From a virus (taxonomy: Duplodnaviria; Caudoviricetes), in IMG/VR virus record IMGVR_UViG_3300027740_000003, positions 288,001-352,000 of that record: a DNA stretch of 64,000 bases; one strand, written 5' to 3'. Every line of letters begins with the position of its first letter. Position 1 is the stretch's first letter. Both the position numbers and the translations under genes were made by a program. The notes beneath the pieces were generated by a model that saw only the letters and a list, made by a program, of their open reading frames with translations, ran no database searches and had not been told where the DNA came from. Of the stretch, positions 21,394-38,757 are shown piece after piece.

Positions 21394-24300
21394 TTAATAC
21401 TTACGTCCCGCAAATGCCTGGTCAAATGCATTCTTTAACTCATCGTCATTACTTCTTGGAGAAATATAATCAGTTGATAATGCAACAGACTCTTTAATAC
21501 CTACCTCAGGAAGAGAGGCTGTTTTGGAAGGAATCCTTCCAACTGTCTCCTGAAGATATGCAAAGTTCTCATCAGAACAATTCATAATCTTCTCGACCTG
21601 ACTGCGTAAACTACGTGGGTCCCTGGCAACTAGGCCTCTTGCAGCCATGTCATAAGCAAGTTCATATGCCCTTGCTACCTTGACTTTAAGAGCCTCTTCA
21701 TTTGCAGCTGCTTTCTTTTCAGTTGTCCCTTTAACAAGCTCACTTACCCATCTGCTAGCTTCTGGATCCTTTGCTTCTCCCCAGAACTTCTTCCAATAAG
21801 ATACCGCTGCCGCATCAAGCCCCTCAGCAATCAAACCTGGGAAATCTGTCTTTGGATCAATTGTTCCTGCAAGAACTAGTTTCTGAATCTTCTCAGCTGC
21901 TTCCCTAACCTTGCCAGGTGCTTTAGTTGCTACTTCCATTGCCTTTGTATGGACTTCTTCAAGATCCTCTACCTTGGCAAGATCACCAGTTGGCTTGGTA
22001 TCAAGGTCGGTTGTAAACCCGCCCTGAGGATGTGCTTTCGATAACATGTCAGAGAAGGTAGTTCCTTTTTGGGCAAGTTTGGTCCGTAAAATATCTCTCT
22101 CTTCTCTTGTCATATTTGCAATCCTCTTTGTTGATGCTTTTGTCTTAAGTGTCTCTGCTACCTCCGTTGGAGTACCTTCTAAATCTGCTGAACCGTCTTC
22201 GTTTACCTGTACCTTGAGATCATTGCTGTCTCCACAACCAATACAGCCTTCTTCTAATACGTTCATTAGTTCATCAAGATCGTTGCTGTCTGATGCTCTC
22301 TGACCAGCTGTTGGTCTTGGTGTAATACGTTGTCCTGCATCTGGGGCTACTGGAGGAGCCACTACTGGTGCTTTTCCAGAACCTTCTTGCAAAGAATTAG
22401 AGCCCGTTGAACCTACTGGAAGAGTTCCTGTTGGCAACCTCTGTGGTTTTTGATCAATAACATCTGGAATCTCTTGAGCAGTCTTCTTAAGATTAGTAAT
22501 AGCATTTGCATATCTAACAAATGAAACCATCATCTTGTGTCCAGCCGATTTTGCTTTCTCAATGTCTGGCGATGCGTCTACAAGAAGTTCCGTAGTCATT
22601 CTAGCAGAGCTAGCTGTTCCATCACTATTAACCTTCTCAATTAGCTTTAACTCATCAGTCATATCAGAGATTTCAGCAAGAGCTTGCTTAATTCCCTTAC
22701 GAAGACCATAACTAAGAGTCTTACGCATTGAACCAAGAGTAGTTGATGCTGTTGCTACTGGTACCTCTGGAACATCCAGATCTCCTGCCTGCTCTTCTTC
22801 ATCAAGAGCTTCAACTGCTTTTTCAAGATCAGCAGAAAGATTACCTAGTTCACGAACCTTATCTTTAACCTGATCTGCTGGAGAACCCGTCTCTCCTGTT
22901 GGCTCAAAATCACCATCCGGAGGAACCGCAGCTGCTGGATTTGCAGCAGGTGTTTCGCCTGGTCCAGGAAGTGCCGGAGCAGGAGCCTGTGCTCTCTTAA
23001 CAGAAGCATTTGCTAATACTCCCTGTGATGCAGGAACTACTGTCCCAACATCTTCAATTTCAAATGGAAGATTATATCCCTGAGCAGCAAGATCTCCCCA
23101 TTCGTCAGTAGATAATGGTCTAGTTTGACCATTTGGCATCTTTACAACGAAATCGGAAGATGTATATGCTGTTTTTACTGATGCAGTGGCGTTTATTGGT
23201 CCAAGATTAACAGCTTGCCTTGCGGTATTAACAACTGCTAATAGCTCCTGCATTTCATTAGACATAAGTATTGTTCTTGCAGTAGACAGTTCTTTATTAA
23301 TTGAAGCTGATATGTCTTTACCCTGCATAAAACTAATAACTTGTCCCCAATTTCCATTAGTGTTAGCTACCTGAACTTTATAATGCAAATTAACAAGTGT
23401 CATTAAATTTGCGGCGCGGAGTTTATCACGAAGGCCTGTGCCTGCTCTATTTGGTTGGAAAGCTCCGGGACCAGCCGACTCACCAGCATCAGAATGTCTT
23501 CCTGCATTAAAGTCGCCACCAGCATAAGGATGTTCACTAGGGCTCTGGGCACCTTTAAAAATTGCCTTGGCTGTATTCACACCCTCACTTCGGATTACAT
23601 CAATCATCTTTAGACCGTAATCTTTAGTAGCAATGCTAGAATAAAGAGAAGCAACTCTTTCCTGTCCAGCTAATTCTCCAACTGTTGCAGAGAATACTAG
23701 GCGGCTCTTGCTATCATCGCCCTTAGCATATACTTGCCACTGCGAATCAGCAAGGTTATCAGAACCATCTTCATTAGAGGCTTTAATGAACTTTGCATTC
23801 AGTTTAGCTCTATTAATAAGTTTCTTGGTTTTCTCATCGTCTCCATAAAGGCCATCAATTTTTCCGACGCTGGGGAATGGAGAAGCTCCAACCATCTGCT
23901 TATCTTCTTTATCACGAATTTTATCTGAATCTTCTTTTGGATACTTTGGCTTGCCAGGAGTTGGCTCATTAACATCCCCACCACCCTGGAAGTAAGCTTC
24001 TCGCTTCCTTTGAATATTTTGCTGAGCTTTTTCTAAAGCAGCTTGTCTGCGAAAACTTCTTGCCTCAGCCTCAGAAGCAGCCCTCAGAAGCTCTTTCTTT
24101 TTCGCTTCGTCATCACCCCAAAGACCATCAGAACCTTCCTCGGAAGTCCCGAGCATCTGCTTGTCTTGAGTATTACGAATCGAGTCAGCTTCTTCTTTTG
24201 GATATTTGACCTGACCGGGAGCTGGTTCATTTACTCCGCCACCACCCTGAAAATAAGCACTCTTCTGATTAGCCATTACTGTATCCTTTTTGTTTTTGTT

Positions 24301-25404
24301 ATTGCTCTCTTTAACAGAAGCCATTTTATTGATAAACAAATCTAATTTTTCTATCTTTTCTTTCAAAATATTTAACTCACTTGCATATCTGGCCGTATTT
24401 GCAGCCTGAGGAACATTTCCTTCTGGAACCTGCTCTCCTGAAATTTCTTTCATCTCAGGACTAACTCCCCTTTGAGCATAAGGGTCCTCTCCTACTAATA
24501 TCTCATTATTAGCTATTTGCTGTAATTCTTTTCTAATTTGTTCTGCTTCTATAATTGCAGCATCAGTTGTTATACCTGCTTCGTCCAATTTTTGCTTATC
24601 ATCATAAGCTGCAACTTTATCAGCTGCTGCAATTACTCTACGAATCTTTGCTCCAGGATCCGCTCCATTTACAACAATAGATAATTCAATTGGAGAAAGG
24701 TCTACGTTAATCTCTCCATAACCACTTTTTGATTTCATGTGTTGACAAAAATCAGACTCAACTCTGGCAACACGATGACAGCCTTTTTCAGTACATATTG
24801 CTCTACCAACAGCTACTCCCATCGAGACGTCAGCAGAATATCCACTAGCTACCTTTCTTGCTAAATCAGGATAATTCTCTTTATCCAAAGCACATAAAGC
24901 AATAATACGCTGTCTCTTGTCATCCCAGACAGTATCAACAATAACTCCACGAATATAATCTACAGAACTTGATTTATGATCTAGACAAAGGGGTTTTCCA
25001 ATCCATTTCTTGAATGCTTTTTTAAGCTCTTTTGCTGGGAAAATATCTCTATTTGCATTTTTATAACCGCCAATAGAAGAATCGTTGCAATGCCATATCC
25101 AACTTCCATCTGTAGTTTCTTCCCAACTAGATTGAACATCCTCTCCATTAGCAGTCTTTTTTAAATTCCCATCGTCATCTAGCAAAGCAGCTTCAGCTGC
25201 GTGCATCATAATACAAGTAAAATAAAGAAAACCATTTGCTTTTGGAGCAATTCTCTTTCCAGAAGCATCTACGGCTTCTTTCTTTAAGAAGGCAACTTTT
25301 TCTTTAAAATATTGAATTACTTCAGGATCTTCATCTAAAGATGATGAATCAAGAAATCTATTATTTGCAATATGTGCGCTTGCAATTTTGATAATTCTAT
25401 TCAT
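21394..25404 (-). CDS. Prohead (capsid maturation) protease fused to a long scaffold or internal-protein region
   Basis: KPLCLDH (candidate His), DVSMG (candidate Ser) and IELSIVVNGADPGAKI match HK97-type prohead protease motifs; Cys cluster follows; long helical C-terminal region with many K-x-A sites. Start set at MNRII (25404) with GGAG RBS. Confidence 0.75.
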   Translation of the reverse strand: MNRIIKIASAHIANNRFLDSSSLDEDPEVIQYFKEKVAFLKKEAVDASGKRIAPKANGFLYFTCIMMHAAEAALLDDDGNLKKTANGEDVQSSWEETTDGSWIWHCNDSSIGGYKNANRDIFPAKELKKAFKKWIGKPLCLDHKSSSVDYIRGVIVDTVWDDKRQRIIALCALDKENYPDLARKVASGYSADVSMGVAVGRAICTEKGCHRVARVESDFCQHMKSKSGYGEINVDLSPIELSIVVNGADPGAKIRRVIAAADKVAAYDDKQKLDEAGITTDAAIIEAEQIRKELQQIANNEILVGEDPYAQRGVSPEMKEISGEQVPEGNVPQAANTARYASELNILKEKIEKLDLFINKMASVKESNNKNKKDTVMANQKSAYFQGGGGVNEPAPGQVKYPKEEADSIRNTQDKQMLGTSEEGSDGLWGDDEAKKKELLRAASEAEARSFRRQAALEKAQQNIQRKREAYFQGGGDVNEPTPGKPKYPKEDSDKIRDKEDKQMVGASPFPSVGKIDGLYGDDEKTKKLINRAKLNAKFIKASNEDGSDNLADSQWQVYAKGDDSKSRLVFSATVGELAGQERVASLYSSIATKDYGLKMIDVIRSEGVNTAKAIFKGAQSPSEHPYAGGDFNAGRHSDAGESAGPGAFQPNRAGTGLRDKLRAANLMTLVNLHYKVQVANTNGNWGQVISFMQGKDISASINKELSTARTILMSNEMQELLAVVNTARQAVNLGPINATASVKTAYTSSDFVVKMPNGQTRPLSTDEWGDLAAQGYNLPFEIEDVGTVVPASQGVLANASVKRAQAPAPALPGPGETPAANPAAAVPPDGDFEPTGETGSPADQVKDKVRELGNLSADLEKAVEALDEEEQAGDLDVPEVPVATASTTLGSMRKTLSYGLRKGIKQALAEISDMTDELKLIEKVNSDGTASSARMTTELLVDASPDIEKAKSAGHKMMVSFVRYANAITNLKKTAQEIPDVIDQKPQRLPTGTLPVGSTGSNSLQEGSGKAPVVAPPVAPDAGQRITPRPTAGQRASDSNDLDELMNVLEEGCIGCGDSNDLKVQVNEDGSADLEGTPTEVAETLKTKASTKRIANMTREERDILRTKLAQKGTTFSDMLSKAHPQGGFTTDLDTKPTGDLAKVEDLEEVHTKAMEVATKAPGKVREAAEKIQKLVLAGTIDPKTDFPGLIAEGLDAAAVSYWKKFWGEAKDPEASRWVSELVKGTTEKKAAANEEALKVKVARAYELAYDMAARGLVARDPRSLRSQVEKIMNCSDENFAYLQETVGRIPSKTASLPEVGIKESVALSTDYISPRSNDDELKNAFDQAFAGRKY

Positions 25405-25517
25405 ATTACTCCAATGAACTGCCCCCACTTAAAAGTGGGACTTCCTATTGATATAATCTCAAGGCATTTTGATTCGGGTTGTTCCAACCCGAATTGGATT
25501 ATTTCTAATCCTTTTAT
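25399..25517 (-). ncRNA. Orphan TnpB omegaRNA / IS200-IS605 right-end copy with no tnpB gene
   Basis: The 103-nt segment 25415-25517 aligns with the tnpB 3' end (34955-35056): shared ATAAAAGGATTAGA, ATTCGG..GAA..CCGAAT stem, GCCTTGAGATTATATCAA and terminal AGTTCA. It also has a perfect CCCACT-TTTA-AGTGGG hairpin. Confidence 0.75.
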
Positions 25518-25539
25518 TATGTCCTATAATGCCCTGTGT

Positions 25540-25662
25540 TTACTTGTCTTTCTTCTCCTGAGCTTCTTTAATTTTCTGACGAGTTTCTTCATCATCGACA
25601 GGTTTAACATTTTCTGGCAATACGTCTATTACTTCTACTTTTCCACGTTTGATTATTGGCAT
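25540..25662 (-). CDS. 40-aa small protein below the ORF-track cutoff
   Basis: AAGGAG RBS then MPIIKRGKVEVIDVLPENVKPVDDEETRQKIKEAQEKKDK; fills the gap in the operon. Confidence 0.6.
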   Translation of the reverse strand: MPIIKRGKVEVIDVLPENVKPVDDEETRQKIKEAQEKKDK

Positions 25663-25672
25663 ATACTCTCCT

Positions 25673-26305
25673 TTACATCATCTTCTTCAATTTTTCTTCT
25701 CGATCTTTATATAACCTACTTATTGATGGTTCTTGCTCAGATATGTCTAGATGATATTTTTCACTTGCCCCATCTAGCCAGCTCTTAGACAACACATTAT
25801 TATTTATATGATCTATCATTCTGTCTTCAATAAGTTTTTTAAATTCAGCTATTTCTTTTTTTAAATTTTCCATTCCTGAAATAACCTTATTTCTAAAATC
25901 ATTTGATTCCCAATCAGATAAAATATGGGTCAAGTTATCTTCTTGTTTTTCAATATCTCCAAAATCATCTGTAAAAGTAGAAATAATCTCTGTAATATCT
26001 GTATCAGAAGAGAAATGTTTTAAATCTTTTATGCACAAAACAGCCATTTGGCTTAATTCATCAAAATTTTCATTAATTTGATTAATATATTTCCACAGAG
26101 ATCCTCTATATTTATTAACCGATTCTTCTGAAACAGTTTGATGTTCTTTAAAAGGATTATATAATAGATTAAGATGCTTGTTAAAAGAGTCTAATTTCTT
26201 TACTAATTTTTCAAGGCGCAGAACAAGTCTAGCTGCAACTTTTTTATCAACATCTGGAATATCCATTGACAATTCAATTGTCTCTGCTAATTTACGAAGG
26301 GTCAT
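25673..26305 (-). CDS. Coiled-coil hypothetical head-module protein
   Basis: 210-aa helical ORF in the operon. Confidence 0.6.
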   Translation of the reverse strand: MTLRKLAETIELSMDIPDVDKKVAARLVLRLEKLVKKLDSFNKHLNLLYNPFKEHQTVSEESVNKYRGSLWKYINQINENFDELSQMAVLCIKDLKHFSSDTDITEIISTFTDDFGDIEKQEDNLTHILSDWESNDFRNKVISGMENLKKEIAEFKKLIEDRMIDHINNNVLSKSWLDGASEKYHLDISEQEPSISRLYKDREEKLKKMM

Positions 26306-26316
26306 GATATAATACC

Positions 26317-28005
26317 TTATAATTGCACGTAGCCGGCTGATTCAGAATTACTGGCAGCATTTGGTGATCCAGATGCTCCACTTGGTGTCATAAATGTATT
26401 TGATAACTGTCCTCCGTCATATGTTCTACCAAGTCCTACATCAGATATGCCTTTGGGTTGATGTGGAGGATTTTGCTGTTCTTTTTCTTCAAGAAGTTTC
26501 ATGAGCTTTTCTCTACGTTTCCTTCTTATTTCTGCTTTTTCTATATAACCCGGAATAAGACCAGCTGGCAAAGACTCTGCATATGGAGATCCAGGTGGCC
26601 CTCCACCAAGAAATGCATCATTCTTATCTTCTTCCATTTTCTTTTCCATTTCCTCTAAATAATCATAATACTTATCATTTTCTGTTAAATGATCTTCGGT
26701 TATTTCTTTTCTTAATTTCAGATCTGGAGTATGTTCTTTTTCTATTTTAATTCCTTTTTCAATCTGTTTTGGATCAAAAAAATGTTTTTTTGAATTATCA
26801 GATAATCCACCAGGCAACTGGTCTGCTATCTTTAATAGTCTATTTATAAACCTTCTTCTAGCAATTTTATTATTAAATAATGTTTGTTGTTTTTTCAATT
26901 CACCAATTGTATAGCTTAAACCGGGATGAAGATTTCCCGGCAATTGATTCAGTGGAAACCATTGATAATCATCATTTTCCCAATTTAATTTAATCATTGG
27001 CGCCCACCTTTCTTTTTCATTTTTTGTTATATTATAGATAAATGTTTTGTATGTAAAACCGCCATCAGAAAAGGTTGTTTCCCCTAATTTTTTTTCTATT
27101 GTTGGTAAAGATCCTAATTCTTCTCTAACTTCCTCTTCCGCAGAATTAATAAATACATTAATTTCTGGATCTGGAAGGTTCTCTTCAGAATCTGAGTAAT
27201 GATCTCCTAGTTCTTTTACAGCACCCCCCGCGACCCCCCAATTCCCACCCATATGAACATATTCAGATCTTTTTAAAAGCAATATTGTATTGTCTTCAAG
27301 ACAAATAAAAATTATTCCAGAAGCTTTCTTTCCCCAATAAGAAGCAGCCGTTTTTGGTGTTGGATATTTTTCCTTCAAAGGATCAATCCACTGATTTCCA
27401 AAACCTATATTATCCGCCCAAAATCCCCCATCAGAATTTGTTGTAGAAACCAAAGAGCCTTGACCATATCCCAAATCCTTAACAGCAGAAACAACATCAT
27501 CGGCCTGATTTGTTTCTACAGTTTCTTTTGTTTTAGGAACACAACCTAGAACACGATCCATACTAGCTTTTGCCACCGGCGATATTCCACCAGTTCCATA
27601 TCCAATATTTTTTTCGACTTCTTTAATAGTTTGACAAGGTTCGTGTCTTTTTACTTTAATCAACCATGAAGCAACAGCAAAACCAACACGATCTTTTCCA
27701 GCCCTACAATGTATCAATATAGGTCTTTGTGGTGTTCCGGGAATATAATCCATTATATTGTTGAATAATGTTGAGGCCTCTCCTGCTGGAGATCCCGGAT
27801 TAATATGAAACATCATATGGTGGAATAATCTTCTGTTCTTCCCACTCATATCGTTAATTCTCTGAGACACTCTTTTTGCAGAATCCCTGTCTAAAGACAA
27901 TATGTCTCTGATATGATAAGTTCTATAAGCATTTATTAAATCAGCAGACATTGGCTCTTCGCTGGTAAATATGCCATATTGTTGATAAGTTGTATTAATT
28001 GGCAC
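26317..28005 (-). CDS. Multidomain protein: CX5R phosphatase + NUDIX hydrolase + DUF5661-like domain
   Basis: HCRAGKDRVG P-loop; NWGVAGGAVKE...AEEEVREELG NUDIX box; KGIKIEKEHT...ITEDHLTENDKYY. Confidence 0.75.
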   Translation of the reverse strand: MPINTTYQQYGIFTSEEPMSADLINAYRTYHIRDILSLDRDSAKRVSQRINDMSGKNRRLFHHMMFHINPGSPAGEASTLFNNIMDYIPGTPQRPILIHCRAGKDRVGFAVASWLIKVKRHEPCQTIKEVEKNIGYGTGGISPVAKASMDRVLGCVPKTKETVETNQADDVVSAVKDLGYGQGSLVSTTNSDGGFWADNIGFGNQWIDPLKEKYPTPKTAASYWGKKASGIIFICLEDNTILLLKRSEYVHMGGNWGVAGGAVKELGDHYSDSEENLPDPEINVFINSAEEEVREELGSLPTIEKKLGETTFSDGGFTYKTFIYNITKNEKERWAPMIKLNWENDDYQWFPLNQLPGNLHPGLSYTIGELKKQQTLFNNKIARRRFINRLLKIADQLPGGLSDNSKKHFFDPKQIEKGIKIEKEHTPDLKLRKEITEDHLTENDKYYDYLEEMEKKMEEDKNDAFLGGGPPGSPYAESLPAGLIPGYIEKAEIRRKRREKLMKLLEEKEQQNPPHQPKGISDVGLGRTYDGGQLSNTFMTPSGASGSPNAASNSESAGYVQL

Positions 28006-28006
28006 G

Positions 28007-28318
28007 TTATAACCTCTTTACTACTTCGTTAATTACAGATCTTACATATCCAGATTGTTTTCCATTTAATAATGTTTTCATAAACGTTATTGCTTGACCG
28101 ATTGCTGCTGTATCTGGGGACTTCTTAGAAGATATATCATATTCATTTAAATTCCATATTTTGTGTCTAACTCTCATTAATGCATATGGTCTTTTTTGAT
28201 AAGATATTTTGCTTAGTATAAATCTAATTATTTCAGCAATATTTTTTCCAGTTATTTCTATATCAGATGCTGCCATTGCTGCTTGGCCAAGCTTTAAAAT
28301 GCGCCACACTTGACTCAT
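28007..28318 (-). CDS. Small hypothetical head-module protein
   Basis: 103 aa, coupled to its neighbours. Confidence 0.6.
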   Translation of the reverse strand: MSQVWRILKLGQAAMAASDIEITGKNIAEIIRFILSKISYQKRPYALMRVRHKIWNLNEYDISSKKSPDTAAIGQAITFMKTLLNGKQSGYVRSVINEVVKRL

Positions 28319-28611
28319 GGCAGCTCCAAATTAATTTCCTTTACCGCTTGCAACATAGCTACATCATCTATATTATCTAATCCAGCTAAAAAAGCCTCAT
28401 CAAATGCTTTTTTAAATGCAATTTGAAACTCTTTTAACTTTTCTGGATTTGATTTTCTAAATTCACGACATACAAAAGAATATGACAGATCAGGTCTGGC
28501 ATCCTGAGCATTTATCTCTGAAGAAATAGCAAATACAATTTTGTTGCAAATTTCATCTTCTCCTTGAATACGAAATTCCTTTGCTAATTTTTTTAAAACA
28601 GATAAGTTCAT
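28315..28611 (-). CDS. Small hypothetical head-module protein
   Basis: 98 aa; LKKLAKEFRIQGEDEICNKI helical-hairpin module. Confidence 0.6.
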   Translation of the reverse strand: MNLSVLKKLAKEFRIQGEDEICNKIVFAISSEINAQDARPDLSYSFVCREFRKSNPEKLKEFQIAFKKAFDEAFLAGLDNIDDVAMLQAVKEINLELP

Positions 28612-30431
28612 ATCCTCTCCATTGCAAACTTTCTTCTTTCCCTATCTATCTTTTCTTCTTTAATAATACTAAATTTAGACTTTCCTTCTTTTATTGTTGA
28701 AATAACGGGGCATTTGTAATTATTTAAAAATGCTTTCGATATTATTATATCAATAGCTTGAACAGCATCTTTAATATAATTTATGTCTCCAGTTGTATTA
28801 CAATTAACCTCTACACTATTATTATTAACACAAATATCAGTATCAGCATCTATTGTTCTTGAAATTGCATTAGATAATATATAAGCGTATTCAATCATTG
28901 AAGAAAGTTTATCTGCTTTTATTTTTATATTAATATCATTTCTGGGAAGAATTTTATCACTAATTGCATTAACAACCATTTCTGTTAAATTATTTGCCAC
29001 TAATTTAATTCCTAAAGCTTGTTCTAATTCTGCAAGTTCATTATCTGGTTCGGAATTATTTCCAATAATTCTATTAAGCTCTTTTAGATAAGCCTCTGGT
29101 TTTGCTGTATAATAACCTTGTTCATGTAATTTATAAACAAAATCTTCTACATTTCCTTGCGCCGCAGCTTCTAATGCTGGTCTAAATCTTTTTGTTAATG
29201 TTCCAAGATAAAATGCCAAACCTTCATCAGGTGTATCAAAAGCCCTAAAATAACACATCGGATGTCTTTCTGTAAATTTATAAGATTTTCCATTTAATCT
29301 TTCGCCACAAGGATAACTTGTCCACTTCCCAGACTTCGGAGACGCCTTTATATTTCCAAAATTATAATTATACATAGAACGGAAATTCCCCGTTTCCAAT
29401 GAAACCTGTCCCCATAATATATTAATACCCTCTTCTGACATTGGAATATCAGGAATAACTTTTTGCCATATATTTCTTATTGAATTTATAAATTCTTCTT
29501 TAGAAAAAGTTGTTTTCTTAGGAGAAATATAATTAGCTCTATCATATTGTGCTTTTCTTTGTTTTATTCCTTCGGTTGATAAATACCAAGGTTGTGTTTG
29601 AGCCATTGCTTTCTTTGGTTCCGGCTTAACTCTAGCTTTTGCCCTTGGTCCTTCTCCGACTGGAATTATTGTTCCAATTTTTTGAAATACCCTTCTTTCA
29701 CTTGGTATTGTTTTATTATATTTCTGATCCACAACAAATACTTCTACTTGCAATGACAACGGAAGATCAGGTACAGTAAATACAACTGATTGCACATAAT
29801 ATATATAATCACCAGCTAAATTTTTCTTATCATCTGATGTTTCTCTTTCAAATACTTTTACAACTTGCCCTGCTGCTACAGCCTCTTTAAATTCTTTCCA
29901 AAATTGTGGATTTTGAACAACTTTTTCAGCCTCAATAGGCATAGCATATGGATCGTTTCCAATAGATAAAAATCTAACAAATCTCTGATGCGCATTCCGT
30001 TTAAATCCTTCACCAATAACAAGGTTGTCCATTCCAAGAACATCATTAATATTTAATATTCCTTCTGGAAAACCTTCTTTATGTTTTGTATTTGGAACCA
30101 CAGCTTCTGTAGCTTCTTCTGATAATTTATCTAGTTCTTTACTTAAATATGAAGCGTTGTGTTTTATTTCTTCTAATGCTTGATTGTATTTGTCAACATC
30201 CCCGTTTTCTATTGATAAATTAATTTGTTCAAGATATTTATCTAAATTTTTTAAATAAGAACTTATTTGAGCAGAATCATTTTTCAACTGATTTACTCTT
30301 TCTCTGTAAGCAGGGTCTGTAAGGCTTTTTAACCAATTCTGAATTCTTTGCAAAACTCCAGCAACCTTGACAACCTGTTTGTCATCAAGCGCATTTAATT
30401 CAATTGCTGCATTTTTAATAATCTCATTCAT
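28608..30431 (-). CDS. Virion protein with GH73/FlgJ-like peptidoglycan hydrolase domain
   Basis: ILWGQVSLETG...YNYNFGNIK...YFRAFDTPDEG...QGYYT matches the catalytic Glu and YxT motifs. Start at MNEII overlaps the upstream stop. Confidence 0.65.
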   Translation of the reverse strand: MNEIIKNAAIELNALDDKQVVKVAGVLQRIQNWLKSLTDPAYRERVNQLKNDSAQISSYLKNLDKYLEQINLSIENGDVDKYNQALEEIKHNASYLSKELDKLSEEATEAVVPNTKHKEGFPEGILNINDVLGMDNLVIGEGFKRNAHQRFVRFLSIGNDPYAMPIEAEKVVQNPQFWKEFKEAVAAGQVVKVFERETSDDKKNLAGDYIYYVQSVVFTVPDLPLSLQVEVFVVDQKYNKTIPSERRVFQKIGTIIPVGEGPRAKARVKPEPKKAMAQTQPWYLSTEGIKQRKAQYDRANYISPKKTTFSKEEFINSIRNIWQKVIPDIPMSEEGINILWGQVSLETGNFRSMYNYNFGNIKASPKSGKWTSYPCGERLNGKSYKFTERHPMCYFRAFDTPDEGLAFYLGTLTKRFRPALEAAAQGNVEDFVYKLHEQGYYTAKPEAYLKELNRIIGNNSEPDNELAELEQALGIKLVANNLTEMVVNAISDKILPRNDINIKIKADKLSSMIEYAYILSNAISRTIDADTDICVNNNSVEVNCNTTGDINYIKDAVQAIDIIISKAFLNNYKCPVISTIKEGKSKFSIIKEEKIDRERRKFAMERI

Positions 30432-33060
30432 CCAATAGTTCCTGAGCTTTTGCAAGAAGTTGACAGCTTAACTCTTCATCTTTATCTTCAATAACTTCTG
30501 AATATTGAAGCATCATTTGTGCCATAAGATAAGGGTCATTTAATTCGGCAGCTTTTTGTAAACGATTATAAAATCGCCTATTGGCAAGCTTTAGAACAGC
30601 ATTGTCTACTGTTGCTGTGATTGATGTCTGTGTTTCTACTTTGCTAAAATTCATTACACTCCTTAAATCTTCTCTGCTCCACACATACGCAGCAACTGAT
30701 TTATTTTTTCTGTCTGCTTTTTCTAATGCGGAATTGGCAATTCCTCCATCAGCAGTTAAAATTGTTTCTTTTCCAAAATAACTTTGGAAAGCGGCACTAG
30801 CAGACATCAACTCTGCTCCCGTAAATTGTCCCCTTACCCAGATAACAACAACATCTGCATCTTTTGCTACAATATTAGATTGAGACGTTTTTGTAAAATT
30901 GTCAATATTTTCAATGTTAACTGTTGCAATCAAATTTTCATATTGAGCCTTTCCTGGCTCAAGAACTTTAGCCTCATCCCATGCATCATTTTTTGGAACC
31001 TCTTCCTTTTTTGGAGCCTTTATTGGCTCCACTTTTTTAGGCTCAACTTTAGCAACAGGCTCTTCTTTTGAAGGCTCCTCTTTTTTTGGAGGCTCAACTT
31101 TAGCAACAGGCTCTTCTTTTGGAGTTTTATTTTTTACAATTTTAAATATTTCTCGTAGCTTTGCTTTAGTATCTTTTGTCAACTTCTTTTGTAAAAGATC
31201 AAATGCTTCTTTGGGGAATATATTTTCTCCTTCTTCCGGATCTATTCCAAGAACATAATATTCTGCATTTGGATAATCTTTCTTTACCCTCCTATCAGAT
31301 GCTGTCATTACATTTACCGGTTTACCTAAAGATTTAGACAAAGTCTCTATGGCCTTTTTTTCATCTGCCCTCTTTATATTTGAAAATATAATTATTCTAT
31401 CAGAACCAACGTCTTTTTTAACTTCTTTTGGCGAAACGTTTGGTTGAACCTCTTTAATTTCAGTAGCTTTTGTCGGCTCTTCTTTCTTTGGTTCCTCCGG
31501 CTTTCCTGGCAACAAATTTGGCTCTTTTTCGGCAGCAATGGCTGGCGGCTCTTCTGTTTTTAATTTTTCTAACACAGTTGTGGCTTCTTCAACAGGAATT
31601 TCTATTCCTTCAACTGATACGACTCCATCTTCAACAGATCCTACAATATTACCATCAGAATCTTGAACAGTTTCGTTCTCGCCTTTATTTTCTACAGCAG
31701 CCTCTAGTACGTCAATTACATTCAGTATCTGAAGCTGACCCATCTGATCAATTTCATCAAGATATTTTCTTGTTGTTAAATCAAATGGTTGATTTTCTTC
31801 TTGTTCTGTGGTAGGTTCAGAGGTTGTATTTTCTACAACAGGCTCTTTTTTCACAGAATCATAATCTAGACCAACCATTTTGAAAGCCTCTCTCATTTCT
31901 TCTTCCGACTTTCCTTTGGTTTTTAAATATGAATAAAGCTGATTAGGATCTACACCAAATGTCTCTTGAACCTTCTTTGGAGGTCTTCCTGGCCCAGGCA
32001 ATGGCTCTGATTTGTTGAATGGCCGCTTTGTTTCGGCAGGTTCATCCGGAGGAGGGAAATAATCATCTTCTAAAATAGATTCACGAGATTGTGAAACCGG
32101 AACGCCAGGAACAGCTTTTCCAGCCGGAGCACCAACTCCACCACTCTCAACAGAAGACTGTGGAACTGTTGGTTGTTTTTTTTGTTCTTGGTGTCTATGA
32201 ACCATATCTAACATTAGATCTGCAAGAGCCTTTCCAGAAACATCTCTGCCTAATGTTTGAACTCTTTCATCTTGTTCGTTCTGTTTCGCAACATCAATTA
32301 TTGGCTGAATAGCTGTAAATGCTTTTAATACGTCATTGCCATATTGTGGTTGCAGTTTAGCAATTTCATCCAATCCAGCAATCCAATCACCAATCATTCC
32401 TTTGGTCCTTGCCATTCCCATTCTATCAAATATAGCAAGCATATTTGTGGCAAATTGCTCAGCTTTATTCACCGCGTTCTCTACCGGGCCCCGAAACTTC
32501 TTTATCTCATTTTGCCAACTCTTCTGTAAAGGATCTCCAAACAAAGATCTATACATTCCTTGCAAAAACTGTGCTTCTTTCTTTATTTCCACACAGTTAT
32601 CAGAAATTATTTCGGCAGCTTTCTGTTGTGATGCTTGGTGTCCTCTTAAAACCTCCATATAATCCATTGCTTGCGGATTATATTGTTTTCCATATTGCCT
32701 ATATAATGCAGATCTAAGTGTTTTAACAACATCTGAGGAGCCTGCTAATATTTCTTGAGCAATTACGTTTACAACCGCTGCATAATATAAAGCATCAATT
32801 AGTCTATTTTCTTTTAAAGCCTTTTTGGATTCAACAATAGCATCTCTAACACTAATATCTATAGCAGAATCTTTTCCAAGAGCTATTGCACGAACAACAT
32901 CATCAGCTGCCCTTAGCTGTTCCATCATATCTTTATAATTGGAAAATAGCCATTCGGACACACCTCTTCCCGCACCGCTTAATGGATTAGTTAAATGTGT
33001 TCTCCACTTCTTATATTCCTGAGCATTTATAATTAAACCATTCCTGGCAAATTTTTCCAT
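30424..33060 (-). CDS. Large head-module protein with P/E/K-rich linkers
   Basis: 878 aa, AGGAG RBS; MEKFA and IKKEAQ sites; KEEPVAKVEP duplicated. Confidence 0.65.
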   Translation of the reverse strand: MEKFARNGLIINAQEYKKWRTHLTNPLSGAGRGVSEWLFSNYKDMMEQLRAADDVVRAIALGKDSAIDISVRDAIVESKKALKENRLIDALYYAAVVNVIAQEILAGSSDVVKTLRSALYRQYGKQYNPQAMDYMEVLRGHQASQQKAAEIISDNCVEIKKEAQFLQGMYRSLFGDPLQKSWQNEIKKFRGPVENAVNKAEQFATNMLAIFDRMGMARTKGMIGDWIAGLDEIAKLQPQYGNDVLKAFTAIQPIIDVAKQNEQDERVQTLGRDVSGKALADLMLDMVHRHQEQKKQPTVPQSSVESGGVGAPAGKAVPGVPVSQSRESILEDDYFPPPDEPAETKRPFNKSEPLPGPGRPPKKVQETFGVDPNQLYSYLKTKGKSEEEMREAFKMVGLDYDSVKKEPVVENTTSEPTTEQEENQPFDLTTRKYLDEIDQMGQLQILNVIDVLEAAVENKGENETVQDSDGNIVGSVEDGVVSVEGIEIPVEEATTVLEKLKTEEPPAIAAEKEPNLLPGKPEEPKKEEPTKATEIKEVQPNVSPKEVKKDVGSDRIIIFSNIKRADEKKAIETLSKSLGKPVNVMTASDRRVKKDYPNAEYYVLGIDPEEGENIFPKEAFDLLQKKLTKDTKAKLREIFKIVKNKTPKEEPVAKVEPPKKEEPSKEEPVAKVEPKKVEPIKAPKKEEVPKNDAWDEAKVLEPGKAQYENLIATVNIENIDNFTKTSQSNIVAKDADVVVIWVRGQFTGAELMSASAAFQSYFGKETILTADGGIANSALEKADRKNKSVAAYVWSREDLRSVMNFSKVETQTSITATVDNAVLKLANRRFYNRLQKAAELNDPYLMAQMMLQYSEVIEDKDEELSCQLLAKAQELLDE

Positions 33061-33110
33061 AAGACTCTCCTACATATTAGACGAAAATAATACCAGGAAA
33101 AATTTGCTAA

Positions 33111-34955
33111 TTATACCGGTGGAGCAGGTGGACCTCCTGCTGGCGGACCGCCTAAACCTCCACCCCCTCCCATCGGTGGAGGAGACGTTAATCCTCCCCC
33201 TAATCCACCACCAAGGCCTCCTCCGCCTCCTAGTCCCATATCCATTCCACCACCTAATCCCCCAGCTCCACCAGGTGGTTGAACAGCTTGATCATATGCT
33301 GTCTCTCCAGGCAACGGACTATCTATAATCTCCTGAATCTCATCATCATCACCAATGCTTCGGAGATCATTAAGCCCCATCCTTTGAAGGGCCTCCATCT
33401 CCTTGGCCTGTATAATTAACTCTATATTCTCTCTTCGAATATGCCTTACCTCTTCCTCATACTCTAGTCCAAGAGATTTATACATTGTCTGCAACGAAAC
33501 TTTCCTAGGTTCCTGTTGAATTAAATTATATAAATTCTGAATATAATCACCCATATCAAATAATGACATGTGATTCCACTCAACATCAGGAACAATAAGC
33601 CTTTTCTGTCCATCAACAATATCATAGAAATCATTCATTTTAGATATTGGAGCAAATATTTTTCTGCGCAACCATGTGCTTAACATGTTTCTGAATTGCA
33701 TATATCTCTGTCTTAATACGTCTAAAGATACCCCTCCATTCGCATACGTCACGTCTGCCCCACCATCCATAATAACCTGTGGAACCATCAGTCCTATATA
33801 AATCAACTTAATAAGCCGTTCAATATCACCAGAAATATCATAAATGCCAGCACCAAAACCAACAGGCTCAACTGATACCGCATCATGTGTAAATATCTTA
33901 AAATCCTTAGAATAACTTGCCTCTTCGAATACTTGACGCCATGGTTCAAGATCTGCCGGTGTTGGTTTGTAATTTTCTCCACCACCACCTATCTTTATTA
34001 ATGTGAGCGGGTTGATAAACTGTGAAGCCTGTACATATTTTGACTCATAAAGCTGGTCAAAAAGCATTAAAGCTCTAAAACAACTTACTGGCAATCCGGT
34101 TCCTCTTACCTCATAAGGAGCTATCCTCCTAGCAATATGAGATACATAAAAATTGCTTAAAGGAATATTTTCTCCTTTTCTAACATGTTCTATAATGCTA
34201 GGGTCGATCTGTTGTCTCTGATATAAATCAGACGGCCTATTGCCAGTTATTATCTTCCTTAAATTCTCATCCGGCCTTAAAGACATAACCGGTTCACCAG
34301 CAATTACATTGCGCCTAACATCTATAAAATCAGGATTCTGAATTGTTATTCTACTCCATTTTGCAGTATTTTGATCTAATTCTGCATAAGGAAATGCTTC
34401 ACCTAGAGTCCAATATTCTTGTGCTATTTGCGTACATACATTCATTAAATCTATTTCATCAATCATATTTTCAAAAAATGCATTAACTTTAGAATTTTTA
34501 CATTTTATATTTAATTTAGATATAGGATAGGTAGAATGTAAAGAAATAGCATTTTGAACAATAGGATTTAATGCAAAAAAACTTCTACACCAAGCATTAA
34601 TTGTTGCTTTATCTCTTGGCAGGTTTAGGTTGCTAAGCAGCCAAAGAGGAGAATAAACCTCGGGCATCATTCTATCAGTGCCACCAGAACCACGATATCC
34701 AGATCCAGTTCCTGAATTTGAATCAAATACTCCCGCAGTTTTTACCCTAGATCCAAGAACTGTTCCTAATGTTGTTTTATTAAACTCATCTGTAAAATTT
34801 CTACCTACAGGATCCCCACGAAACTTTCCCGACTCAATTTCTTCCTCTAAAACTTCTCTACGATATTGAGATACAGAACGCGCCATCCTCTCTGTAGCCT
34901 GTGGAGATACTCCTTTCTTCTTTGCTAAATATTGCTCAGAATTTGTTTTGATCAT
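33111..34955 (-). CDS. Portal protein
   Basis: Position between terminase and head genes; INAWCRSFFALNPIVQNAISLH, QEYWTLGEAFPY and YEVRGTGL resemble portal motifs of large phages; G/P-rich C-terminal tail. Confidence 0.7.
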   Translation of the reverse strand: MIKTNSEQYLAKKKGVSPQATERMARSVSQYRREVLEEEIESGKFRGDPVGRNFTDEFNKTTLGTVLGSRVKTAGVFDSNSGTGSGYRGSGGTDRMMPEVYSPLWLLSNLNLPRDKATINAWCRSFFALNPIVQNAISLHSTYPISKLNIKCKNSKVNAFFENMIDEIDLMNVCTQIAQEYWTLGEAFPYAELDQNTAKWSRITIQNPDFIDVRRNVIAGEPVMSLRPDENLRKIITGNRPSDLYQRQQIDPSIIEHVRKGENIPLSNFYVSHIARRIAPYEVRGTGLPVSCFRALMLFDQLYESKYVQASQFINPLTLIKIGGGGENYKPTPADLEPWRQVFEEASYSKDFKIFTHDAVSVEPVGFGAGIYDISGDIERLIKLIYIGLMVPQVIMDGGADVTYANGGVSLDVLRQRYMQFRNMLSTWLRRKIFAPISKMNDFYDIVDGQKRLIVPDVEWNHMSLFDMGDYIQNLYNLIQQEPRKVSLQTMYKSLGLEYEEEVRHIRRENIELIIQAKEMEALQRMGLNDLRSIGDDDEIQEIIDSPLPGETAYDQAVQPPGGAGGLGGGMDMGLGGGGGLGGGLGGGLTSPPPMGGGGGLGGPPAGGPPAPPV

Positions 34956-35056
34956 GAACTATCCTTTGTTTTAAAACATAGATTACCTTTTGATATAATC
35001 TCAAGGCTTTTTAATTCGGACAATTCCTGACCGAATACTGTCTCTAATCCTTTTAT
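34939..35056 (-). ncRNA. Cognate omegaRNA overlapping the tnpB 3' end; guide would be the first bases of the portal gene
   Basis: Established TnpB architecture; ATTCGG/CCGAAT stem; homology to the copy at 25415-25517 fixes the scaffold end at AGTTCA. Confidence 0.7.
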
Positions 35057-36130
35057 CAATATATTCTTAGCTGCGTTTATATCTCTATCATGCAATGTTC
35101 CACATGTGGAACATTGCCATTCCCTATCAGAAAGAGATAACTCTTGATGAATCTTTCCACAAACATGACATCTCTTTGAACTTGGTTCAAATCGATTGAT
35201 TTGAACCAATGTTCTTCCATACCATTTTGCTTTATATTTCATCATTGCAACAAATTTGCTCCAAGAAACATCTCCGATGTTTCTTGACATTACTGAAGGA
35301 GATTTCTCCAAAAGAGATTTTACATTAAGATCTTCTAAACATATTACGTGGTTATTGTTAATAATATTAGAAGATAATTTATGTAAGAAATCATCTCTTT
35401 TATTGCAAATCTTTTCATGTAATAAAGCAATTCTTAGTTTTAGTTTGTTATAATTATTTGATCCTTTTATTTTGTTAGATAATAATTGTTGTAATCTTTC
35501 TAAATGTTTTAGTTCTTTATTATAGAATTTAGGATTATCTATTTTAGAACCATCAGAAAAAGTAGTAAAAGTTTTTATACCTAAATCTATTCCTATATAA
35601 TTTGGACCTAAAGTCTTTTCAGGAAGTTTATTTCCGTCCTCAACTAGAATAGAAATGAAATATTTATCAGTAGGTGTTTTAGAGACAGTACAAGTTTTAA
35701 TTTTTCCCTCAAATCTTCTATCAATTCTTGCTGCAATATTTTTAATTTTTGGCAATTTAATAATGTCTTTTGAGAAATTTACTTTAACTCCTTGAGGAAT
35801 TGAATAAGATTGTTTTAAATATTTATTTTTAAATCTAGGGAAAGAAGTTCTTTTCTCAAAAAATCCTTTATAAGCCCAACACATATGTCCAACCTCTTGT
35901 TGAAGAGCTTGCGATGAAACATCATATAACCAACTATATTCATTTTTAAGATCTTTTAAAAATCCAGAAATAATATCAAAACATGATAGGTTAATTTTAT
36001 TTTTATTATAAGTTTCTCGCTTGGCTTCTAAAGTTTTATTATAAACAAATCTACAACAACCAAAAGTCTTCGCAAAGAAAACTTTTTGTTCTTTAGTAGG
36101 ATAAAGTCTATATTTATAAGATTTTAACAT
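34952..36130 (-). CDS. tnpB: TnpB RNA-guided endonuclease (IS200/IS605 family, IS1341-like)
   Basis: KSYKYRLYPTKEQ...FGCCRFVYN N-terminus; RuvC residues intact (IGIDLG, CLEDL, DRDINAAKNI); CxxC...CxxC zinc ribbon. Confidence 0.93.
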   Translation of the reverse strand: MLKSYKYRLYPTKEQKVFFAKTFGCCRFVYNKTLEAKRETYNKNKINLSCFDIISGFLKDLKNEYSWLYDVSSQALQQEVGHMCWAYKGFFEKRTSFPRFKNKYLKQSYSIPQGVKVNFSKDIIKLPKIKNIAARIDRRFEGKIKTCTVSKTPTDKYFISILVEDGNKLPEKTLGPNYIGIDLGIKTFTTFSDGSKIDNPKFYNKELKHLERLQQLLSNKIKGSNNYNKLKLRIALLHEKICNKRDDFLHKLSSNIINNNHVICLEDLNVKSLLEKSPSVMSRNIGDVSWSKFVAMMKYKAKWYGRTLVQINRFEPSSKRCHVCGKIHQELSLSDREWQCSTCGTLHDRDINAAKNILIKGLETVFGQELSELKSLEIISKGNLCFKTKDSS

Positions 36131-36204
36131 TTTTTAAATTTTTACCAATTTATAGAAATATACAAAAATATTAATTATATAAATTTTGCACTTGGGGTTG
36201 ATCA
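34955..36204 (-). mobile_element. tnpB-only IS200/IS605-type element inserted at the portal start codon
   Basis: Bounded by two copies of ATGATCAA on the minus strand (36198-36205 and 34948-34955); ends in TAGTTCA; no tnpA in the window. Confidence 0.7.
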
Positions 36205-36233
36205 TAATTATATGCCTCAATATCTATATAACA

Positions 36234-38108
36234 TCACCTGAACGGACAATAACCGACAATTGCAGGAATTTTCTCCGGCCCTCTCTTGTCAAATGGTCCT
36301 TTCTTATTATCAGAAAATCCTCCTGATACCCAGAATTTATATGCCAAATAAGCATTAACCAAAGCCATCATGCCGTCATTTGGCGTAGATCCTTTAATAA
36401 ATCTCCTAACAGGCTCGTTTACCACGTTAAATGTAGTTTTTACTTCCATTGAAGCACAATGGTCTATTAACCAAGATATCTTGTCATATCCAGAATTTTC
36501 CCCTCTAGCTCCACCCAATGGAAATCTTATTAACCCACGTTTCATTACATTAAATACTTCTTCAATATAATATTCTCTTTCTGCTTTTATTAAATGAGGA
36601 AATGAATCTGTATATAATTTAGCTTTACCAGTTAATTTCCCTGCAAGTTCACAACCAAGGAACCTGTCTCCATATTCTCTCTGCAAATCTTCTGTAAGTT
36701 CATGGGCAAATCCAATATCTCCTATGGCCTGGACTATACTGTATTTCCTCATAACTTCATGAATATAATTTCTTTTATATTCATTGTCATTTTTTTTAAC
36801 AATTCCAGCATAATCAATAACTAATCTTCCAGGACCGTCTTCTCTTAAAACAACACAAGTAGAATAAGATTGACCACCTGCTCTTCTTGCCTCTTCTTTC
36901 CCAACCTGATCTTCATCAGATCTCTTTCCCCAGTCAAATCCGGCAAATACTTTTGCTTCCTCAGACCTTGGTATAGTTGCCCGCATACATCTCTTCGAAT
37001 CTCCACATTTTTCAATAATTTCTTCTTTTGAAATCGGACCCATATCACCAGTATAAAATTCTCCCAAAACCTCATTCATATAAGCCCGCTCCGTGTTAAC
37101 AAGGCTTTTTTCCGGTTTTTCATCATCCATTGCTTCTCTGGTAAATCGAGGATTATAAAGCTGATTAATGTGATACCCAATCATAGAAACGTTAGGATCG
37201 TCATCGTCTCTGGTTCCTATCCATTTGCCCCTTTCTGCTGCTTCTCTTTTATCTTGAATATGATTGCATTCTGGACACTGAACCATAAATCCATAAATCC
37301 ATATCTTTTCCCAATCATTGCTTCCTGGTGTATAAAGTGGAAAATGTTTGCCACAATTTTCACAACCAAGATAATAATATTTCTGACTAGACTCTGTCCA
37401 CATTTTATAATAATGAGAGCTTTTGCTTCTTGGGGTACCAAAATAAACCTGTACTCCTTTTGTTGGCTTTCCATATTGAGCCTGAGTACACATCTTATTT
37501 ATATTCGCAATGGCAGTCTGCATGATTGACTGAATCTCATCAAAAAGAATAATATCAACGGTACCACCCATCAACCTGTCCCCATCAATTCCAGTAGACT
37601 CAATACGAACGAAATTACCACCTTCAAATTGTTTATACTGCAACGAATTATTTGTTGGAGACGTCTTGTCTAATTTGGATTCAATAATAGAAATAGACCT
37701 AGATCCTTTGGTTAAACCAGAAGGAATAGATCCTTTAATCATTGAATTGAATTTGGTTTTTGCATATAAATGAACGTGAACCAATGTTGGGAACAAATGA
37801 ATAACTCTTACTGGTGGCTTTCCTCCCCGGCCAAATATACCAGATGCCATAAAATAAAGTTCAAGTGCCGCGGCCATGGTTGTTGCTCCAACCTGCCGTC
37901 CCTTGACCAATATAATAGGTTTTGAATTAGCGCTTAGGGCACTTATGCCTATCTGCCTATAGATGTCTGCAAATGGCTTGTAGCCGTTCCCATGCACTCT
38001 GAATGGAAATCCGTCTAATGTAAGGTTCTGTTCACAGAACATAACAGGGTCTACACTTGAAATCCCTGATTTTAATTGTTCGAATACATTTATTTCTTTT
38101 TGTTGCAT
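36234..38108 (-). CDS. terL: Terminase large subunit
   Basis: KGRQVGATT Walker A, LFDEIQ Walker B, FGTP motif III, CxxC...CxxC, and AGFDWG nuclease Asp. Confidence 0.9.
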   Translation of the reverse strand: MQQKEINVFEQLKSGISSVDPVMFCEQNLTLDGFPFRVHGNGYKPFADIYRQIGISALSANSKPIILVKGRQVGATTMAAALELYFMASGIFGRGGKPPVRVIHLFPTLVHVHLYAKTKFNSMIKGSIPSGLTKGSRSISIIESKLDKTSPTNNSLQYKQFEGGNFVRIESTGIDGDRLMGGTVDIILFDEIQSIMQTAIANINKMCTQAQYGKPTKGVQVYFGTPRSKSSHYYKMWTESSQKYYYLGCENCGKHFPLYTPGSNDWEKIWIYGFMVQCPECNHIQDKREAAERGKWIGTRDDDDPNVSMIGYHINQLYNPRFTREAMDDEKPEKSLVNTERAYMNEVLGEFYTGDMGPISKEEIIEKCGDSKRCMRATIPRSEEAKVFAGFDWGKRSDEDQVGKEEARRAGGQSYSTCVVLREDGPGRLVIDYAGIVKKNDNEYKRNYIHEVMRKYSIVQAIGDIGFAHELTEDLQREYGDRFLGCELAGKLTGKAKLYTDSFPHLIKAEREYYIEEVFNVMKRGLIRFPLGGARGENSGYDKISWLIDHCASMEVKTTFNVVNEPVRRFIKGSTPNDGMMALVNAYLAYKFWVSGGFSDNKKGPFDKRGPEKIPAIVGYCPFR

Positions 38109-38118
38109 CTTTACCTGC

Positions 38119-38757
38119 TCACTTGGAAGCAGGCATCAAACTCATAAATGCATCGTCTTGTGGAACATCTTCCTTTCCTACATTCTTTCCTAGATAAGGA
38201 CTCTGAACCGCAGGTGATACCATTGACCTGGCTTCCAATATTAAATTACTTAGAAATTCTTCAACTTCTACCGTCCTGACATCAGACGGGTCTACCCTAA
38301 ATAAATGCTCAATATCATGCTGTAGTTGTGGAACTGAGGCCGATAATCCATGAACATTATCTATATAGTTCTTGATATATGTTATTATTGTATTAAAATC
38401 ATATTTTTTTAATGACTCTGGAACCTCATCTTCTTCCATTATCTGAGCTACAATCTTTTTAAATTTATTGCTATCATCCTGCTGTATTTTGCTAAGATAT
38501 GAATTTAACCCAGTCCTGTTCCTCATGTCTTCTACAGCATCATCTACAGTAGCATAGCGAGGTTTTGTTGCTTTTATATTGTTTATTTCACTAACAATAG
38601 ATTGACGGCTTCTAGCCTGTTCAACAGCGCTATGTTGCTGTCTAGCCATTTGATCAACAACTCGATGCATCCATGGTGTTAGATTATCATAGCTCTCTTT
38701 CTCATAGCCAGAATCTTCATCACTAATTCTATTTACTCCAGAATATCCTCTAGGCAT
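38119..38757 (-). CDS. Hypothetical head-module protein
   Basis: 212 aa in the operon upstream of terL. Confidence 0.6.
   Translation of the reverse strand: MPRGYSGVNRISDEDSGYEKESYDNLTPWMHRVVDQMARQQHSAVEQARSRQSIVSEINNIKATKPRYATVDDAVEDMRNRTGLNSYLSKIQQDDSNKFKKIVAQIMEEDEVPESLKKYDFNTIITYIKNYIDNVHGLSASVPQLQHDIEHLFRVDPSDVRTVEVEEFLSNLILEARSMVSPAVQSPYLGKNVGKEDVPQDDAFMSLMPASK

Follow-up and report, generated by a model that had tools for sequence, protein, structure and literature searches.

Transposase-less IS605-type TnpB/omegaRNA elements beside the head genes of a huge phage and their probable maintenance by RNA-guided homing

The stretch of DNA analysed here (the window) comprises 64,000 nucleotides, bases 288001-352000 of the IMG/VR virus record IMGVR_UViG_3300027740_000003, which belongs to an uncultured huge phage and, at 435,004 bp, is complete by CheckV. 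It carries a gene for the nuclease homologue TnpB between terL, the gene for the large terminase, and the portal gene, and two copies of a scaffold of the guide RNA (omegaRNA) type, a third copy lying outside the window (Table 1). These features probably represent IS605-type elements that lack a transposase and are maintained by RNA-guided homing into, or exclusion of, sibling phages, possibly with extra guides acting in trans. The elements most likely spread between phages in the manner of homing endonucleases, and the head genes beside them are most likely not regulated by them.

The identity of the 392-residue TnpB rests on sequence similarity to solved TnpB structures. It contains the Pfam domains HTH_OrfB_IS605, OrfB_IS605 and Cas12f1-like_TNB (E values of 5e-21, 1e-26 and 2e-24, respectively), matches phrog_506 with an E value of 5e-126 and can be aligned across ~360 residues (E 4e-63; 8bf8/8exa) with the TnpB of ISDra2 from Deinococcus radiodurans, which has the same domain order, D-E-D residues and zinc finger (8bf8, 8exa, 8h1j; PMC8612924, PMC10097598). 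In this alignment the RuvC triad is intact, with the motifs GIDLGIK, LEDLN and HDRDINAAKNI at the positions of ISDra2 D191, E278 and D361, and both CxxC pairs of the zinc finger (CxxC...CxxC) are kept. RNA-guided cleavage dependent on a target-adjacent motif (TAM) is predicted for the phage protein. A preliminary description of the window had noted a sole tnpB with intact RuvC residues and no tnpA, and this holds for the full 435-kb record, in which tnpB is single and a search for the Y1 transposase (PF01797), positive in six control genomes, found none. The missing tnpA does not exclude membership of the IS200/IS605 family, since the majority of tnpB elements are without it (PMC10055086), and with no transposase in the genome the elements cannot be moved by TnpA from within it. 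The TnpB domains, the catalytic triad and a structured scaffold at the tnpB 3' end are those of an IS200/IS605 OMEGA system; what is lacking, besides Y1 TnpA, is a pair of intact hairpins at the two ends.

Three scaffold copies, and no more, were found in the genome by BLAST and by a covariance model (CM R1) built in this analysis from the scaffold family. An 18-mer core, GCCTTGAGATTATATCAA, has exactly two occurrences in the window, where 0.14 would be expected. The scaffolds lie dispersed at 313, 323 and 395 kb with one flank-derived guide each, and no repeat-spacer array of the kind seen in CRISPR-Cas type V is formed in the genome. Copy 1 overlaps the final 35 codons of tnpB, the open reading frame (ORF) of which spans the entire scaffold, and copies 1 and 2 both terminate in AGTTCA. 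Processed omegaRNA scaffolds measure 79-466 nt, that of AmaTnpB being 106 nt (PMC10278001), and the ~105 nt of the phage scaffolds lie inside these limits. Between the solo units, copies 2 and 3, the identity is 94%. Copy 2 can be read in the tnpB frame, with no stop across 35 codons and 58% identity to TnpB residues 358-387, and the solos are therefore what is left of the 3' end of a sister tnpB element after 5' truncation, with the truncation point just past the last RuvC motif. Both solos begin within the tnpB frame (residue 358) and are without a left end (LE), and thus do not have the two ends that characterize a palindrome-associated transposable element (PATE).

The genes of the studied region (terL, tnpB, portal, the 40-aa ORF and the 1336-aa ORF) are all on the minus strand. 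The ATG of the portal gene consists of the last base of scaffold copy 1 followed by TG, so that guide 1 continues into the portal coding sequence. Guide 2 holds the Shine-Dalgarno (SD) sequence GGAG and the ATG, at 25404, of the 1336-aa ORF, which lies ~9.5 kb downstream of the portal gene; copy 2 ends 11 nt before this ATG. Copy 3 is oriented antisense to the genes around it, its guide enters the 3' end of a 75-aa ORF, and the insert gives this ORF its last 12 codons and stop. The preliminary description had claimed that the scaffolds end at translation starts, which stands for copies 1 and 2 with the 16-mers it named, but not for the antisense copy 3, which has no start codon beside it. It had also called the 1336-aa product a protease. 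Residues 116-312 of this protein give weak matches to head maturation protease PHROGs (phrog_2774, E 3e-15; phrog_18299, E 6e-11; phrog_4523, E 3e-7), but the protein has no match in Pfam or PDB, and the label is plausible though weakly supported; the ORF is referred to below as the protease-like gene. The three guides have no other genomic match with <3 mismatches over 20 nt. A near-match of guide 2 at genome position 76138 (minus strand), TTGGAGTAATATGAAT versus CTGGAGTAATATGAAT, has 1 mismatch over 16 nt and 4 over 20 nt, with TATATT upstream instead of ATTAT and an SD/ATG-like context as well.

Table 1. Positions of the scaffolds, guides and neighbouring genes (window coordinates unless stated otherwise)
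Feature	Position	Strand	Basis or remark
terL, large terminase, upstream of the insertion	36234-38108	-	Pfam GpA_ATPase E 2e-13; phrog_675 E 1e-54
ATTAT, candidate TAM, left junction of the tnpB element	36204-36208	-	sequence; recurs at empty sites
23-codon leader ORF	36134-36205	-	translation MINPKCKIYIINIFVYFYKLVKI, then stop
Degenerate left end	36131-36203	-	5' half of the family LE hairpin only, CCCCAAGTGC
tnpB, 392 aa	34952-36130	-	Pfam, PHROG, ISDra2 alignment
Scaffold copy 1 (omegaRNA / right end)	34955-35060	-	CM R1 82 bits, E 4e-17
Guide 1, TGATCAAAACAAATTC	34939-34954	-	sequence; portal first codons
Portal gene	33111-34955	-	phrog_16240 E 8e-53; related in 79 loci
40-aa ORF upstream of copy 2	25540-25662	-	next gene's start overlaps its stop in relatives
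Scaffold copy 2 (solo unit)	25415-25518	-	CM R1 104 bits, E 2e-22; unit taken to 25520
Guide 2, TTGGAGTAATATGAAT	25399-25414	-	sequence; SD and start codon of the 1336-aa ORF
1336-aa ORF	21394-25404	-	N-terminal domain like head-maturation protease
Scaffold copy 3 (solo), outside the window	genome 394957-395061 (L002:1519-1623)	+	BLAST and CM R1

The tnpB element appears to be fitted to the translation of the operon. At its left junction the original ribosome-binding site (RBS) of the portal gene, GAGG, precedes ATTAT; the leader ORF opens at this old portal RBS/ATG and ends 3 nt before the tnpB ATG, and presumably serves translational coupling. At the other end, the TGA stop of tnpB overlaps the portal ATG (ATGA), and the AAGGA of the terminal stem of copy 1 sits 6 nt 5' of that ATG. 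Portal translation would be chained through the element in this way, from the old RBS by way of the leader, tnpB and the ATGA overlap to the portal gene. The left end of the family, as seen in relatives, has the form GCAAAGAAAAC-hairpin-GATGAATTTGC, and in the window element it is reduced to GATCAA-CCCCAAGTGC. With its left end decayed, the tnpB element should not be mobile even with TnpA provided. Among the subterminal hairpins, that of the right end (RE) is present, that of the left end survives by half in the tnpB element, and the solo units have none at the left. An 8-bp sequence, ATGATCAA, is found at both junctions of the tnpB element (36196-36203 and 34948-34955, minus strand). IS200/IS605 elements make no target duplication, and a target-site duplication is an unnecessary explanation for the repeat, the family left end starting with G-CAA; about two extra bases remain that are not fully explained.

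Relatives without the insertions provide natural counterparts of the uninterrupted alleles. No tnpB is present between terL and portal in any of the 79 IMG/VR loci with a related portal gene. The nearest relative, L005 (92% portal identity), has an empty terL-portal site, ...GGGTATTATATT-ATGATTAAAACAAATTCTGAGC, with one mismatch to guide 1, which is synonymous; the empty site ATAATTA-TGATCAAAAC, predicted in the preliminary description, has its natural match there in ...TATATTA-TGATTAAAAC. At the position of copy 2, L086 and L087 have no spacer: the 40-aa ORF and the protease-like gene overlap there, stop on start. In an 82%-related phage (L090:1721-2464) a Hint + LAGLIDADG gene lies directly before the protease-like gene, and L088/L089 also have a Hint/LAGLIDADG gene at the copy 2 site, just upstream of position 3001. 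That such a classical homing element, intein-like or of the homing endonuclease type, occupies this site identifies it as a hot spot for homing. In run X3, an independent metagenome from groundwater, there is a contig joint that skips 34955-36240 and leaves a 32-nt terL-portal spacer as in L005, and a second joint, similar in depth, that skips exactly 25415-25518 with 5 letters between, its borders agreeing with the unit defined by the covariance model. In the same run the depth on tnpB (window 34984-35751) is 4-10x that of the flanking phage genes and one contig links a copy-2-like scaffold to tnpB sequence, implying that many related tnpB elements circulate there, including a full-length relative of the solos. 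The first of two models in the preliminary description, in which co-infecting relatives with empty sites are the objects of interference or homing, agrees with the L005 site, the run X3 relative without both insertions and the intact RuvC residues.

The empty sites also point to a motif. On the sense strand they read TATATTAT/GATTAAAAC and ACAATTAT/TGGAGTAAT, and the corresponding sequence at the left junction in the window is ATAATTAT/GATCAACCCC; ATTAT is 5' of the guide match at both empty sites and is present at this left junction. With the right end taken as AGTTCAY, ATTAT is a candidate TAM, which is suggestive only. The left junctions of distant family members have ATCGT, ATCGT and ATTGT, and one has TAAAT. 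In the distant relatives L012, L013, L015, L017 and L023 an antisense PIN-PhoH gene of 430-484 aa is located between terL and portal. The notion of the terL-portal junction as a general hot spot for selfish genes was rejected, as the larger gaps in distant relatives hold these PhoH-PIN genes.

Under the favoured explanation, the three insertions would belong to one phage-borne lineage of IS200/IS605-type TnpB/omegaRNA elements, one being a tnpB element complete apart from its decayed left end and two being tnpB-less remnants made up of the ~105-nt scaffold and the right end. The scaffold transcript would include 16-20 nt of flank as the guide, and TnpB loaded with this RNA would cut the uninterrupted allele, with its TAM and target, in a co-infecting sibling phage. 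Repair of the break from the element-bearing genome would copy the insertion and co-convert the neighbouring head genes; alternatively, the break would destroy the rival phage. The carrier itself would be immune because the insertion splits the TAM from the target. The guides would cover gene starts because a packed co-directional operon tolerates insertion only between a stop and the next start, and gene starts would also be well-conserved targets. Cutting of the empty allele by TnpB followed by recombinational repair has been described as TnpB homing (PMC10055086), and 'non-restorative homing' into co-infecting phages is listed as theoretical in a 2026 review (PMC13565253).

The two solo units would be additional guides given to TnpB in trans. 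Meers et al. described protein-less PATEs encoding omegaRNAs that need TnpB in trans (PMC10055086), and use of the solo scaffolds by the resident TnpB is plausible, though unproven. A distributed multi-guide system, in which one TnpB is armed in trans by stand-alone omegaRNA genes before or in different genes, is a tentative and somewhat doubtful reading; it would allow several loci of sibling phages to be cut and converted at once in phage-against-phage competition.

Several observations weigh against homing with a shared set of guides. In the core, the solo copies 2 and 3 share 70-72% identity with copy 1, the scaffold of the resident tnpB, and are nearer (77-78%) to scaffolds of other tnpB elements. 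The mismatch of L005 falls at guide position 4-5 and could block cutting. The left borders of the solos are CATAAT, not ATTAT, and very few sites stand behind the candidate TAM. The second empty site of run X3 is represented by one contig, the short side of which is just 25 nt, and no contig bridging the empty site of copy 3 was found in three runs, nor any homologue of the 63-aa native part of its host ORF among 5.8 billion proteins. RNA runs were searched for this phage and none contains it. Finally, L151, a complete 169-kb phage with terminal repeats, has one solo unit (1501-1609) and no tnpB, and thus solos can persist without a resident nuclease. Upstream of the L151 solo there is an inverted repeat, ATGATATTA...TAATATCAT, which is common to several solos in other contigs.

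The structure of the scaffold was derived by aligning seven tnpB-linked and six solo sequences of the family (13 in all), which were drawn from this genome, from IMG/VR and from metagenomes. They share three hairpins, in which 9 of the 20 pairs given by RNAalifold are changed on both sides, and to these a pseudoknot was added in which the hairpin 1 loop (GRAY) pairs with the 3' tail (GUUC). With hairpins and pseudoknot together, 97.5% of cells pair, versus 17-52% with slid partners, 8 pairs carry double changes, and the covariation of the structure including the pseudoknot lies above all 500 shuffles. Variation within the pseudoknot is confined to G-U wobbles, suggesting a role of the RNA and not merely of a DNA hairpin. 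Compared with shuffled sequences, the solo copies 2 and 3 fold with z-scores of -4.6 and -5.6, and copy 1, which also encodes protein, with a weaker -1.9. Five positions distinguish copies 2 and 3; three of them are in the terminal stem, with pairing kept in all three, and one of these is a compensatory double change from C-G to T-A. Of the 35 columns without variation among tnpB-linked copies, the solos retain 33-35 (34 in copies 2 and 3), with 11-43% divergence in the variable columns, a retention partly biased by the pattern that was used to find solos in other phages, which fixed about half of the invariant columns; copies 2 and 3 came from searches independent of that pattern. The solo scaffolds look to be under selection and not decaying.

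The scaffold family matches no family in an Rfam scan of the window, and a megablast of the region against GenBank phages matched nothing. The 18-mer core was found by an exact-pattern scan nowhere in IMG/VR apart from this genome. With a looser pattern, 5 loci in IMG/VR and 42 in metagenomes were obtained, the majority of the latter being chance matches, and a pattern search of 185,579 prokaryote genomes gave four matches, all by chance. A scan for sigma-70-type promoters returned 54 sites against 46.5 expected, too close to expectation to be informative.

Solo units are found in other huge phages as well. A 209-kb record has one tnpB and 2-3 solos, and its locus L154 is an in-place internal deletion that retains the first 25 nt of the left end. 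Mini-elements bearing a left end occur in a related phage (L154, L155), and another unit of the 209-kb record is PATE-like with both hairpins. Solo scaffolds that are identical have different flanks in L129 and L134, and at least four different 5' breakpoints occur among the solos of these phages with the core intact. Relatives, like copy 3, speak against a start-codon rule: solos are at assorted places, and an ATG is within 15 nt of the right end in ~4 of 12 insertions (flanks counted by eye). The closeness of ATGs to right ends is read here as a result of insertion between closely packed co-directional genes.

Of the other explanations, the one that survives best, though unlikely, holds that the solos are dead relics of tnpB elements, tolerated in or near intergenic DNA after deletion of the gene, so that only the full element, if any, is active. 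Their nature as truncated tnpB 3' ends, the loss of the left-end hairpin, the in-place deletion seen in L154, the solo in a phage without tnpB and the antisense entry of copy 3 into a small ORF would all be expected of relics. Relics should not, however, share a 5' border at two unrelated sites as copies 2 and 3 do, which implies that the solo unit spread after truncation. The compensatory change that keeps the stems, the retention, in part biased by the search pattern, of nearly all invariant positions in spite of the divergence elsewhere and the sparing of the core by at least four independent breakpoints are likewise difficult to reconcile with decay.

It is improbable that the solos are cis-acting RNA or DNA structures independent of TnpB, such as stabilisers, processing sites or spacers that supply or expose an RBS. 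Their strong and stable folds, the AAGGA provided to the portal gene by the terminal stem of copy 1 and the existence of a solo in a tnpB-less phage are consistent with such a role, but the conservation of single-stranded linkers and of the loop-tail pseudoknot is typical of a guide scaffold bound by protein, the RBS of the protease-like gene is in the flank and outside copy 2, and copy 3 is antisense to its neighbours.

Least probable, and poorly supported, is the second model of the preliminary description, a domesticated TnpB that binds the start regions of portal and protease, as messages or genes, through two guides and so tunes head assembly: although two of the three guides span SD and ATG, TnpB-derived regulators (TldR) exist (PMC10705468), and the portal RBS within the scaffold and the translational chaining of tnpB to portal mean that binding or processing of the late transcript by TnpB would necessarily affect portal mRNA, the RuvC residues are intact unlike those of TldR, the guides are flanking DNA as with any IS605 element and have no second genomic match at the threshold given above, the guide match in the phage's own genome is flanked by the right end in place of a TAM so that its own DNA cannot be bound, copy 3 is away from any start, start adjacency is also seen at a tnpB-linked copy beside an unrelated 84-aa gene in another phage, and the closest relatives lack both insertions, so that head assembly can proceed without them.

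The favoured explanation, homing or exclusion directed at sibling phages, places the phage elements near several described systems. As in ISDra2, the scaffold overlaps the tnpB 3' end and stops at the right end, and the guide is flanking DNA. The differences from ISDra2 are the phage genome without tnpA, the decayed left-end hairpin, the location in a head operon with an ORF reaching the very end of the element, a candidate TAM of ATTAT versus TTGAT, and a scaffold family that is outside Rfam and was not met in the prokaryote genomes searched. The ISGst/PATE-like elements of Geobacillus stearothermophilus likewise combine tnpB elements and protein-less omegaRNA elements in one genome, and ISGst TnpB was shown to be a homing nuclease acting on the empty donor joint (PMC10055086). 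However, PATEs keep both ends and are moved by a resident TnpA, whereas the phage solos have no left end and no TnpA is present, and the predicted target is the genome of a sibling phage in place of the sister chromosome. The T-even genes for SegB, SegF and MobE are also selfish nuclease genes between conserved essential genes; these free-standing endonucleases carry out intronless homing and marker exclusion (PMC13565253), and in the same manner the phage TnpB is expected to cut the corresponding allele in a co-infecting relative, into which the element would be copied with flanking markers. Unlike theirs, its recognition would be by RNA guide and TAM, and targets could therefore be added by small RNA units without a new protein. 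TldR of prophages is a phage TnpB homologue with a guide RNA as well (PMC10705468), but it has lost RuvC and its guide matches a host promoter elsewhere, while in the present phage RuvC is intact and the guides match their own flanks only, no TAM-flanked promoter target being found elsewhere in the genome. The preliminary description knew of no account of such an arrangement; none was found in the literature for a phage TnpB with dispersed solo guide units, a landfill megaphage study mentioning merely TnpB genes (PMC12607003), but the principle is preceded by PATEs (PMC10055086).

Three other genes on the same strand may be mentioned. Upstream of terL, a 212-aa protein (38119-38757) has a sub-threshold TnpV match (E 6e-5, 23.5 bits, cut-off 27) and may be the small terminase or unrelated. 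In the head-gene block, a 562-aa protein (26317-28005) combines an N-terminus resembling tyrosine/dual-specificity phosphatases with NUDIX and DUF5661, and among the virion genes a 615-aa protein (28608-30455) gives a weak match to glucosaminidase (peptidoglycan hydrolase) just below the Pfam cut-off.

If the solos are relics, the locus is an ordinary insertion sequence remnant in a phage. For practical purposes, the locus provides three naturally occurring forms of the scaffold, a pair of natural empty targets and a candidate TAM, all for one compact nuclease of 392 residues. If the resident TnpB loads the solos, they would form a natural multi-target gene drive or an exclusion weapon between phages, a use that has so far been only theory (PMC13565253) and for which bacterial PATEs are the closest precedent described. 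In that case a transposon nuclease with a single guide would have gained several guides acting in trans, a step towards a CRISPR-like organisation, and the multi-guide system, if true, would be a natural intermediate between the one-guide transposon nuclease and the CRISPR-like effector with many guides.

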